Below, piece by piece: positions 24,098 through 27,980 of a stretch of 64,000 nucleotides of DNA. This DNA comes from Xylographa opegraphella (lineage: Eukaryota). A model generated the notes under the pieces. The model was not told the DNA's origin and did not search any database. It worked only from the letters and a program-made list of their open reading frames with translations. Where the stretch lies: assembly GCA_022813865.1 (NCBI GenBank), contig JALDZX010000006.1:310001-374000 (forward strand), written 5' to 3'. Each line of letters begins with the position of its first letter. The first letter of the stretch is position 1. Position numbers and translations under genes: made by a program.

Positions 24098-25413
24098 TCA
24101 CCTGGCCCTGCCATTCCTTTTCCTAGTTTTCCGTGATGCTCCGCCGAGTGCAGAGGCGGCTTTCGAATGCGTTTCGTCGTCTTCGTCTGCGCTCACCGCT
24201 TCATCCTCACCTGCCCACCCGGCGTTAATGTCTTCTTGAGTGTGTCCAACAACGCGGACCTTTAAAGTGTGATATATCCAGGCCGGCAAGCGGTAAAGCA
24301 CGGTTTGCTTGAAGGTTGGCTTGACGATCTCATTCGGATCGAGCAGAAATTGTTGTTTTTTGCCGTTGGCATCTTCCTCCTCCAGGTATACGTTGCCGAC
24401 GGAGTCGACGAGGAGTGTCTTGCCATTTTCTGCCTCCACGCGCTTCTTCTGGCCCTGAGGGACCTGAGGGTCTGCGTCGAGCGGTGTGTTAGTGCCACTC
24501 CGCTGCGCTGACTTTGATCGCTTGTTGTCTTTGCCTTTCTTCGCTTCCCTCTCCTGCAAGCGCTTCTGTCTACGGTTCAGAGCCATGCCTCCGTCCTCCT
24601 GTCCAGTCGCAGTGGCTGGTACATCCACTCCTCCCGTCGCGTCAACGCCAGGTATGCCCATGATCCCAGTCTCGTCGCCCCATGCTGTTTTTCTCGCTTG
24701 TCGAATATACCGCTCCACGAACTCACGCTGCCGCTTCCAACTCAGCAATAATACTCCATAATGAGCCAAGCCGCCTCCAAAAACAAAAAGTCCGCTTATC
24801 GTCGAGAGCAGACCAGGCCGGAAGCGCGCATAGTAGTATCCCGTACCTCGCCATTTGGGGAAGCCGTTGGCCAGAAAGTGATCGTATCTTTCACGCCCCT
24901 CGCCCCTCAGTATGTTCGCGATAATGCCAAGACGTGCGAAGCGGTCGCTGGCATCTTTCACGGCTTTCTGAATCTCGCGCTCTGAGGGTGGTTTGCTGAC
25001 ATGCACACCTGGCTTCTTACCAGGTTTCGCTTTCGACGTTGGCTTGGCTCTTGAGGCAATGAAGGACTGCTTGGCTTTATCAGGATGGATGACCCTTGAC
25101 TTCTTTCGGTACGCTTTGTTGATCTCGTCCTGCGATGCGCTCGGCTTCACGCCCACGAAGTCTGACACGGGATTAGATTTTCTCCTGGACTGGGATTAGG
25201 CCTTTCTCCGATACGGACGCACCATAGAACGTGACATCTTGTCCCTCGTGAGCTTCTATCTCATCTTTCAATCGGAAGATCTCATAATCTGAGATGCATC
25301 AGCTCCTGCGTGACATGCTGTCCGGTTCTCCAAGCCATACCATCCTTGTCCCAGCCGGCGACCAGCACCAGCACTCCGCAGAATACGACGATGGACAGTA
25401 GCGACAGTCTCAT
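24098..25413 (-). CDS. ERJ5: ER membrane J-domain co-chaperone (Erj5/DNAJC1-like)
   Basis: Signal peptide from ATG 25413 (MRLSLLSIVVFCGVLVLVAGWDKD), two short 5' introns, YEIFRLKDE, HPDK, FPKWRGTGYYY and a TM segment. Confidence 0.88.
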
Positions 25414-25979: not shown

Positions 25980-26071
25980 GTGCGTACTCATACGTTCCCA
26001 GCGTGAAAGACCACAACGCCAAACAAAGCTCCATGTTATTCAGTGAAGCTGACGCGAGAAGCAAACTTTAG
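25980..26071 (+). other. Probable 5'-UTR intron of YIP3
   Basis: GTGCGT donor, GCTGAC branch site and TTTAG acceptor upstream of ATG 26161. Confidence 0.55.
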
Positions 26072-26160: not shown

Positions 26161-26691
26161 ATGTCTTACATCAACATCCCACTGGACGCGCTGACGTCCC
26201 GGCTCAACATTGCCGGGGTCTCAGAACAAGTACGTTCGCAGTCCTTTGGACAAAGGTTCGCAAACTTGAAGCCTATCTCGGAGTTCCTAGACTTGAAACG
26301 TTTGTCAAAGCCTGCCAACTTTACCGAGGTTCAGAGCAGGATCAACTACAATATCGGATACTTCTCCACCAACTATGCCGGTGTCGCCCTTATGCTTGGA
26401 GTCTACAGCTTGCTTACCAATTTGACACTTCTTTTCGACATCATCTTCGTCGGCGTTGGACTTTTCGGTATCAAGAAGCTCAACGGCCGTGATCTGGACG
26501 TGGGCTTTGCTCGTGCAACAACATCTCAACTGTATACTGGTTTACTGATCATCGGTGTTCCACTTTTCTTCTGGGCGAGTCCCATAGGCACAGCTCTTTG
26601 GCTTGTTGGCGCTACCGGTGTGACGATCTTGGGCCATGCCTCATTCATGGACAAGCCGATCGATACAGCTTTTTCCGAGGAGGCCGTCTGA
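26161..26691 (+). CDS. YIP3: PRA1/Yip3 prenylated Rab acceptor (short form, 176 aa)
   Basis: LKPISEFLD..RLSKP..VQSRINYNIGYFSTNY, two long hydrophobic hairpins, C-terminal LGHASF..FSEEAV. Confidence 0.93.
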   Translation: MSYINIPLDALTSRLNIAGVSEQVRSQSFGQRFANLKPISEFLDLKRLSKPANFTEVQSRINYNIGYFSTNYAGVALMLGVYSLLTNLTLLFDIIFVGVGLFGIKKLNGRDLDVGFARATTSQLYTGLLIIGVPLFFWASPIGTALWLVGATGVTILGHASFMDKPIDTAFSEEAV

Positions 26692-26710
26692 GTGGTCGGC
26701 GGCGAACTCC
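26670..26710 (+). promoter_or_regulatory. Putative -1 programmed ribosomal frameshift signal (slippery heptamer plus stem-loop)
   Basis: T TTT TCC at 26670-26676 in the YIP3 frame, followed by GGAG-GCCGTC(T)GA-GTGG-TCGGCGGC-GAA-CTCC, which can fold as a stem-loop. The -1 frame stays open to 27980. Confidence 0.8.
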
Positions 26711-27980
26711 ATACGATATGCCCCCATGGGGAAGACCATTAGGGGCTCAGGAAGGGAAGGGGAGGAAGGAAAGGGAACGAGAGCGGCGAGAACGGGAGCA
26801 AGAACGACGTGTTGAGGAATTAGACAGCGATTCTGACGATGGCCAAGGTGTTTACTTTGGTCGTTCATTTGCAGGAGATGATTTGCATTTTACGGGCGCA
26901 GATTTGGGACGTGGTCTTCGCCACAGGGGAAGACAAGGGTCTTCAGATGATTCCGAACATTCAGAGGATGTTGTCGATTACGACTTGGGTAATGGTTCCG
27001 CAATGCAAGTAGCTTTACGAGATAAAGAGGAGGTTTTGGTCCAGAGAGCAAAAGAACGAATTCGGCGCGCGCAGGCTATGGGAGAAATAAGTGTCAAACT
27101 ACCTTCATCTGAGTTGGATGCTCTTGAGCGACAGTTGGCAAGCGAGCAGGCAAAGGGAAAGAGGCCAACCTTGAAAGCAAAAGCAAGTGGTGAGAGGCGT
27201 ACTAGTGATCGTGGGTCAAGGTCTCAGAATGTAGTTACATCGACAGCTACGAGAAGGAAAAGCAGATCCTCACTCGTCATCGCTAACGACAGACATGGAA
27301 GTGATCCAGCACAAACAGCACCACCTGGCTTCCTTGTTGCTGGCCCGGATGGTCGTCCTATCTATACACCTTTCGGTTATTATCCGCCTTCTCCTGTTTC
27401 ACCATATGGCCCGTCGTCACATCCCAACTCACGTACTGGCTCTACACACAGCTTACAGCACACTCCTCCATTGCCTCAACCCCAGAGTCGCAGCCAACAG
27501 AAGCGTTACTTTTCGGTGCCGGAACAACACCATCAAGCGTCATCAGGAAGACGAGGAACCTCTTCACCGAGACCTTTACCTGATGATCCTGATTGGCAAC
27601 CTCGTGCTCGATCGACATCCAACCTCCCATATCCTTCCGACCTTTACCAGTACCCCGCATACTCACCGCCATTGCCGCAAATGCCTATACAATACTCCCC
27701 AGGACGACGCAATGTTTCCGGTCCTGAAGTTGGGTACCCAAGTCCTCGAGGTGTACAAGCCGGCCGTCCCTCCGCTGCTACTTCAGACCCATCCTTACTT
27801 AGGAGAGAGTATTCTGGAGGTGGTGTACAATACGAACAAGATAACAGCGAGGACGACGTGGATGAAAGTGACCAAGACGAAGGCGTTCAGGTTGATGTCG
27901 TGCCATACGGCCAAAGCTATGGCGTGAATGTTGCCAGGGGGCCGCCAGGGAGTGGTAGGCAACGGAAAAATCGCCGCTGA
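26670..27980 (+). CDS. -1 frame extension of YIP3 (long form about 606 aa), low-complexity Pro/Ser/Arg-rich tail
   Basis: ORF 26598-27980 overlaps the YIP3 end in the -1 frame. Its first ATG (26718) is only 26 nt after the YIP3 stop. Contains a conserved-looking MQVALRDKEEVLVQRAKERIRRAQ block. Confidence 0.78.
   Translation, partial: FFRGGRLSGRRRTPYDMPPWGRPLGAQEGKGRKERERERREREQERRVEELDSDSDDGQGVYFGRSFAGDDLHFTGADLGRGLRHRGRQGSSDDSEHSEDVVDYDLGNGSAMQVALRDKEEVLVQRAKERIRRAQAMGEISVKLPSSELDALERQLASEQAKGKRPTLKAKASGERRTSDRGSRSQNVVTSTATRRKSRSSLVIANDRHGSDPAQTAPPGFLVAGPDGRPIYTPFGYYPPSPVSPYGPSSHPNSRTGSTHSLQHTPPLPQPQSRSQQKRYFSVPEQHHQASSGRRGTSSPRPLPDDPDWQPRARSTSNLPYPSDLYQYPAYSPPLPQMPIQYSPGRRNVSGPEVGYPSPRGVQAGRPSAATSDPSLLRREYSGGGVQYEQDNSEDDVDESDQDEGVQVDVVPYGQSYGVNVARGPPGSGRQRKNRR

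Follow-up and report, generated by a model that had tools for sequence, protein, structure and literature searches.

The YIP3/PRA1 gene of Xylographa opegraphella probably encodes a second, longer protein through −1 ribosomal frameshifting, as in Podospora anserina

The stretch of DNA analyzed here (hereafter the window) comprises 64,000 nucleotides (nt) from Xylographa opegraphella, of the class Lecanoromycetes (NCBI GenBank assembly GCA_022813865.1, contig JALDZX010000006.1, positions 310,001 to 374,000, forward strand). We propose, with a probability of roughly 0.9, that its positions 26161–27980 constitute one YIP3/PRA1 gene, in which a single mRNA specifies two proteins via −1 ribosomal frameshifting. 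Here, most ribosomes would stop at the UGA at 26689 to give a 176-residue PRA1 protein, while a minority would slip back by one base on the heptamer U_UUU_UCC (26670–26676) and read the −1 frame up to 27980. The resulting 606-residue product would join PRA1 to a largely disordered Ser/Pro/Arg-rich tail with one conserved helical hairpin. The slip would be promoted by an RNA structure 2 nt past the heptamer, namely a 10-base-pair (bp), G+C-rich, bulged stem that is probably closed as a pseudoknot. The sequences compared below directly establish the anatomy of the locus, its conservation, the covariation of its base pairs and a suppression of synonymous change. This recoding event is already published in kind, as PaYIP3 (Pa_1_8470) of Podospora anserina (Malagnac 2013; PMC3777964, whose main text is followed here), and is encountered in this window in a new lineage.

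The YIP3 open reading frame (ORF) starts with the ATG at 26161 and runs for 176 codons, with GCT TTT TCC GAG GAG GCC GTC TGA as its 3' end; its product is a member of the PRA1 family (Pfam PF03208, E 1.3e-36, residues 32–172). The heptamer T_TTT_TCC is separated by 12 nt from the stop codon (26689–26691). The −1 frame, open between 26493 and the TGA at 27978–27980, begins FFRGGRLSGRRRTPYDMPPW... when read from the heptamer and from there extends over 436 codons; its first ATG past the YIP3 stop lies 26 nt downstream, at 26718. An original prediction, made from this DNA by a reader who saw only the sequence, had given the end of YIP3, its stop, the position of the heptamer and the 12-nt gap, each of which matches the sequence to the base. 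Its figures of about 435 open codons in the −1 frame and of 26 nt between the stop and the next ATG likewise agree with our counts. It had also stated, correctly, that a conserved −1 frameshift giving long and short Yip3 is reported for P. anserina PaYIP3 and Pezizomycotina, and was right in judging the case probably not new to science (PMC3777964).

An alignment of the extension (A1), used to scan metagenome contigs, yielded 79 related loci, five of which start at or within the extension and are devoid of the upstream part, leaving 74 usable for the frame relation. In these 74 of the 79, tblastn with the window's two proteins finds a YIP3 ORF directly upstream of the extension (60–84% identity), and in all 74 the frame of the extension is that of YIP3 minus one; a +1-frame arrangement occurs in none of the 74 loci, nor in the window. 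Together, the window and the related loci furnish 48 distinct 115-nt junctions, every one of which contains GCT TTT TCN; the N is C in 43, A in three and T in two. The YIP3 stop codon is TAG in 42 of them, TAA in five and TGA only in the window. The original prediction had named the alignment of orthologous loci as a way to check both the heptamer and the −1 overlap; the former is kept as T_TTT_TCN in 48/48 distinct junctions and the latter as the same frame relation in 74/74 loci. Additionally, the last eight codons of YIP3 (169–176) show the least third-position variation of any eight-codon segment in the ORF, with an entropy of 0.30 bits as against 1.42 bits for codons 1–165 (48 distinct ungapped sequences). 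The invariant −1 arrangement and this low third-position entropy together place the arrangement beyond chance. Further, a −1-frame stop codon ends 3 nt upstream of the heptamer in 20 of 58 distinct loci, which confines the frame change to 22 nt that include the heptamer.

In terms of phyletic spread, 8000 candidates were scored in the search for homologues of the extension, and 346 of them qualify at E <= 0.001. The top five are hypothetical proteins of Xylographa species (81–86% identity) and are followed by those of other lichen-forming Lecanoromycetes. The extension of one metagenomic locus (L068), placed near Sordariales, was found by homology search to be 47–57% identical to the Rhypophila and Podospora extensions; hence, the loci extend beyond Lecanoromycetes as far as the order for which the frameshift has been demonstrated experimentally.

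Further evidence comes from the RNA. For the 44 nt past the heptamer, a bulged hairpin is predicted (−16.2 kcal/mol, z −2.1), with six of 200 shuffled sequences folding equally well. In an alignment of the RNA element (A2, 45 sequences), all 10 pairs of stem 1 form in every sequence. The pair 26685/26701 is G-C in 43 of these, A-U in one and C-G in the window, which thus itself bears a compensatory double change. Two more pairs vary on one side with pairing kept (U-G to U-A in five sequences and C-G to U-G in two). None of 500 column shuffles reaches the observed covariation score, and sliding the partners by one to three columns lowers pairing from 99% to 33–57%. A by-eye comparison with the printed P. 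anserina insert (PMC3777964) reveals U-A where all 45 sequences have C-G, and thereby a further compensated pair; by the same comparison, the window differs from PaYIP3 in two swapped stem 1 pairs (C-G for U-A and C-G for G-C), with pairing kept in both. In the −1 frame the window encodes GGRLSGRR in place of the otherwise near-invariant GGGLGGRP, such that three residues are replaced while the helix is kept; from this it looks as though the RNA helix is under stronger constraint than the −1-frame peptide at this particular junction. Among the 48 distinct junctions, a TGA stop (26690–26691) occurs in the window alone, as does C-G at 26685/26701; it is these changes that replace the three residues.

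The only length changes within the RNA element are 3-nt insertions, found in two loci at A2 columns 35–37 (L075 and L076) and in a third at columns 61–63 and 76–78 (L045). These fall in predicted loops, namely the stem 1 loop, the stretch past stem 1 and the loop of a CCCC/GGGG mini-hairpin, a distribution that is consistent with the proposed helices. A search of Rfam with the element returned three matches only, at E 4.5–5.5 and far under the gathering scores, indicating that it belongs to no curated family.

Past the YIP3 stop, coding is left to the −1 frame alone, but synonymous sites remain frozen for roughly another 48 nt, up to GGGGAAGACCA (26728–26738). Among 49 distinct complete extensions, we considered conserved residues with fourfold or sixfold degenerate codons; codons 18, 21, 22 and 23 after the slip are near single-codon (CCC in 48/49, GGA in 49/49, AGA in 49/49 and CCA in 47/49), whereas all 16 comparable positions from codon 72 onward show codon entropies of 1.56–2.38 bits. 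Overall, the same extension ORFs use GGA for 24% of their Gly codons and AGA for 17% of their Arg codons. The frozen block can pair with the stem 1 loop (GUGGUC with GACCAY, 6 bp) and can form the mini-hairpin. The six pairs of this far partner, GUGGUC/GACCAU, are 98.1% paired in the 45 sequences, with two of them altered on both sides. A nearer partner for the loop around the ATG (26716–26719) was rejected, as it shows no double changes and has three weak pairs in the window. A local hairpin predicted by RNAfold (26717–26746) shows no covariation, with its outer helix paired at 82%, and is kept only as a rival of the pseudoknot. When stem 1 is masked, 15 of the 45 sequences have a minimum-energy fold with the far partner, a number that rises to 17 if two extended versions are included; 25, the window among them, adopt the local hairpin, and no sequence uses the near partner. 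Given these mixed energetics, and the preference for the local hairpin in the window, we treat stem 2 as a candidate.

The 59-nt insert of the published yeast reporter ends before the frozen block (PMC3777964), which raises the possibility that the stimulator is larger than the element tested. Judged from codon conservation and pairing potential, we advance this as a tentative and still rather doubtful suggestion. If true, a larger stimulator could explain both the 1% efficiency of the insert and its failure with a canonical slippery site. Apart from this extended conserved RNA block, none of the findings goes beyond the literature covered.

With regard to the slip itself, two routes can be envisaged on the heptamer. 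In a tandem slip, the tRNA-Phe would move from UUU to UUU and the tRNA-Ser from UCC to UUC, giving the junction ...TAFSRGG...; in the other, the P-site tRNA-Phe alone would slip, giving ...TAFFRGG.... Both routes predict 606 residues, in accord with the approximately 606-residue long protein of the original prediction. The junction peptide that it had offered, PIDTAFFR, is the one expected of the P-site slip and would be wrong for the tandem slip. As the Ser codon ends in C, A or T across the locus set, the sequences are compatible with either route; single P-site slippage is favored in the P. anserina paper (PMC3777964). For X. opegraphella itself, that the slip occurs, how often it does so and whether it involves one tRNA or both are matters of inference.

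Four other explanations for the two overlapping frames were weighed. The first is that the downstream ORF is translated from the ATG at 26718, by reinitiation, leaky scanning or from its own transcript, to give a free 420-residue protein and no fusion. An ATG at the equivalent place, 26 nt past the YIP3 stop in the window, is shared by 30 of the 58 distinct loci (the window being counted among the 58), and many databases list the downstream ORF as a separate hypothetical protein. However, the other 28 lack an ATG over the first 20 codons past the slip site; in its place they have GTG, TCG, TTG or GCG, and their first ATG comes 25–188 codons in, past the invariant WGRP motif and beyond invariant residues. 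Moreover, independent genes would need neither the −1 relation seen in 74/74 loci nor the fixed spacing, and a GFP (green fluorescent protein)-tagged wild-type allele of P. anserina gave a band of the size of the fusion (PMC3777964). We accordingly regard an independent start as improbable.

A second alternative, which we consider very improbable, invokes slippage of the RNA polymerase on the T5 run, with one U added to some of the transcripts; such a one-base insertion would yield the identical long protein, with the junction AFFRGG. A run of five Ts is short for transcriptional slippage, which counts against this explanation. A covarying, conserved structure 2 nt downstream fits a ribosomal event. 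So does the frame dependence of the yeast dual reporter, in which frameshifting was 1% as against 0.3% out of frame (PMC3777964). The twelve P. anserina complementary DNAs (cDNAs) available are too few to exclude a 1% sub-population of transcripts.

Third, a short intron of 3n+2 bases could join the frames, with the long form arising by splicing. The window does hold 266 GT..AG pairs of 40–500 nt that would restore the frame (e.g. 26686–26750, 65 nt), and gene predictors routinely place such introns. Yet none of the 266 combines a GTRNGT donor with a CTRAY branch site, bearing out the earlier statement that there is no intron signal, and each would remove conserved coding sequence of PRA1 or of the invariant WGRP region. 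The same twelve P. anserina cDNAs show neither splicing nor editing at the site (PMC3777964). Among the best 120 extension matches listed, a PRA1 domain is present in 10 and absent in 110, and the fused database models inspected at the junction (10 + 8) differ in the point at which the two ORFs are joined, the pattern expected of forced introns. Splicing is thus highly improbable, and the fixed frame relation, the non-conserved downstream ATG and the want of a credible bridging intron together argue against both an independent start and splicing. Public gene models from many Pezizomycotina are either fused by inconsistent short introns or split into a PRA1 protein and a 'hypothetical protein', and this treatment of the YIP3 family looks like a systematic annotation error. 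Finally, that the frame break is a homopolymer assembly error or a pseudogene lesion, as its location at a T5 run might suggest, has next to no probability, being already refuted by the same break in 74/74 loci and by the intact and conserved state of both ORFs.

Several points weigh against the frameshift itself. Many of the loci are closely related, so that the counts overstate the number of independent events; further, one of the three retrieval patterns spans MPxWGRP, so that the set is skewed to loci retaining this peptide, though not to particular codons. The heptamer T_TTT_TCC departs from the canonical X_XXY_YYZ, and the window carries a possible independent start in the ATG at 26718. 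The efficiency in yeast was only 1%, the PaYIP3 pseudoknot gave a canonical slippery site no stimulation, and the P. anserina long form alone fails to complement the deletion, with no role found for it (PMC3777964). The continuity of the mRNA and the long form have been seen in P. anserina only, and are extended to X. opegraphella by homology.

Compared with PaYIP3, the window presents the same constellation: a 5' ORF of the PRA1/YIP3 family; a Pezizomycotina-only 3' ORF in the −1 frame, coding for a tail without a known domain; U_UUU_UCC about six codons before the stop; a 2-nt spacer; and a G+C-rich stem that is interrupted by a 3-nt bulge and holds the stop codon in its loop. In PaYIP3, the U UUU UCC is at codon 170, and a stem-loop or pseudoknot with a conserved 3-nt bulge in stem 1 starts 2 nt downstream (PMC3777964). 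The window differs, besides the swapped pairs, in its class, in its TGA stop in place of TAG, and in being known from its sequence, in contrast to the experiments on P. anserina. According to the paper, the arrangement is conserved throughout Pezizomycotina, and two orders, Capnodiales and Ophiostomatales, have +1 variants; their YIP3 comprises these two ORFs as well, at broadly the same site, but with the extension in the +1 frame, as opposed to −1 in the window and the 74 loci (PMC3777964). PaYIP3 was called the first cellular gene of non-retroviral origin to lengthen its protein by a −1 frameshift (PMC3777964), and is listed in a 2016 review of recoding (PMC5009743). Our literature search found no later experimental work on the YIP3 site, and the main text of the P. 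anserina paper, figures and supplements aside, makes no mention of Lecanoromycetes or lichens (PMC3777964).

Further afield, in the mammalian cellular genes Edr/PEG10 and Ma3, too, a −1 shift lengthens the protein, and the Edr pseudoknot shares a 3-nt bulge with stem 1 of the window; unlike the window, according to the text of the paper, these genes are retroelement-derived and have canonical tandem-slip heptamers and longer spacers (PMC3777964). The pseudoknot of the coronavirus infectious bronchitis virus (IBV) resembles PaYIP3 in the G+C-rich base of its stem 1, but, unlike the window, IBV combines a 6-nt spacer with the canonical U_UUA_AAC, and the PaYIP3 structure could not replace that of IBV in yeast (PMC3777964).

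The tail has no Pfam family, either in the window or in any of the 48 aligned members, and no sequence relative in the PDB at E <= 1. AlphaFold2, run on the 48-sequence alignment A1, models the chain as mostly disordered (whole-model mean predicted local distance difference test score, pLDDT, 53.8), with a single confident fold, a helical hairpin at residues 93–147 whose blocks score 88–92, and a weak beta-hairpin at extension residues 204–218. The region of the helical hairpin houses the invariant residues Q97, K103, L107, A111, R114, I115, A118 and G122. A wide structure search of the tail with VIA-align retrieved generic helical hairpins only (best Z 6.0). Its nearest ESM Atlas clusters are of unnamed families auto-labelled 'Prenylated Rab acceptor 1', and probably represent the same tail. 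In P. anserina, the long form shows the localization of the short form, exerts no dominant-negative effect and does not occur in the fruiting-body centrum; the authors suggested a regulatory or destabilizing function for the tail (PMC3777964).

Table 1. Features of the YIP3 locus, in positions of the window
Feature	Positions	Strand	Basis
YIP3/PRA1 ORF, short form, 176 residues + TGA	26161..26691	+	open frame; PF03208; tblastn
Slippery heptamer T_TTT_TCC, zero-frame codons GCT TTT TCC (F171, S172)	26670..26676	+	sequence; conservation
2-nt spacer GA	26677..26678	+	sequence; GA or GG across all 45 aligned sequences
Stem 1	26679..26710	+	5' arm 26679–26688; 3' arm 26698–26703 and 26707–26710; predicted, covarying
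Stem 1 bulge, 3 nt, GAA	26704..26706	+	fold prediction
Stem 1 loop: YIP3 stop and GUGGUC	26689..26691 and 26692..26697	+	fold prediction
Candidate stem 2 of pseudoknot, GUGGUC (26692–26697) with GACCAU (26734–26739)	26692..26739	+	inferred; pairing and frozen synonymous sites
Possible 4-bp mini-hairpin CCCC/GGGG, between the stem 2 arms	26721..26724 with 26728..26731	+	
−1-frame extension ORF, long form 606 residues; about 435 codons past the slip, with TGA 27978–27980 as stop	26673..27980	+	
Predicted helical hairpin of the extension, residues 93–147 counted from the M at 26718	26994..27158	+	AlphaFold2

Upstream of YIP3, a consensus-like candidate intron of 92 nt (GTGCGT...CTGAC...TTTAG) occupies 25980–26071 on the forward strand, its 3' end being 90 nt before the YIP3 ATG. 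PaYIP3, too, has an intron, of 173 bp, within its 5' untranslated region (PMC3777964). Conservation of such an intron is unconvincing, with candidates in eight of 42 distinct upstream regions as against three of 42 reverse-complement controls. Still further upstream lies a divergent neighbor, a 365-codon frame (stop to stop) at 24101–25195 on the reverse strand, which, close to the N-terminus, encodes a DnaJ domain (PF00226, E 1.4e-08).

Taken as a whole, the window introduces no new principle; it extends the YIP3 −1 frameshift to a lichen-forming lineage. The gene ought to be annotated as a single coding sequence with ribosomal slippage. The frozen block, in turn, offers a concrete reason why the published reporter may under-measure the signal.

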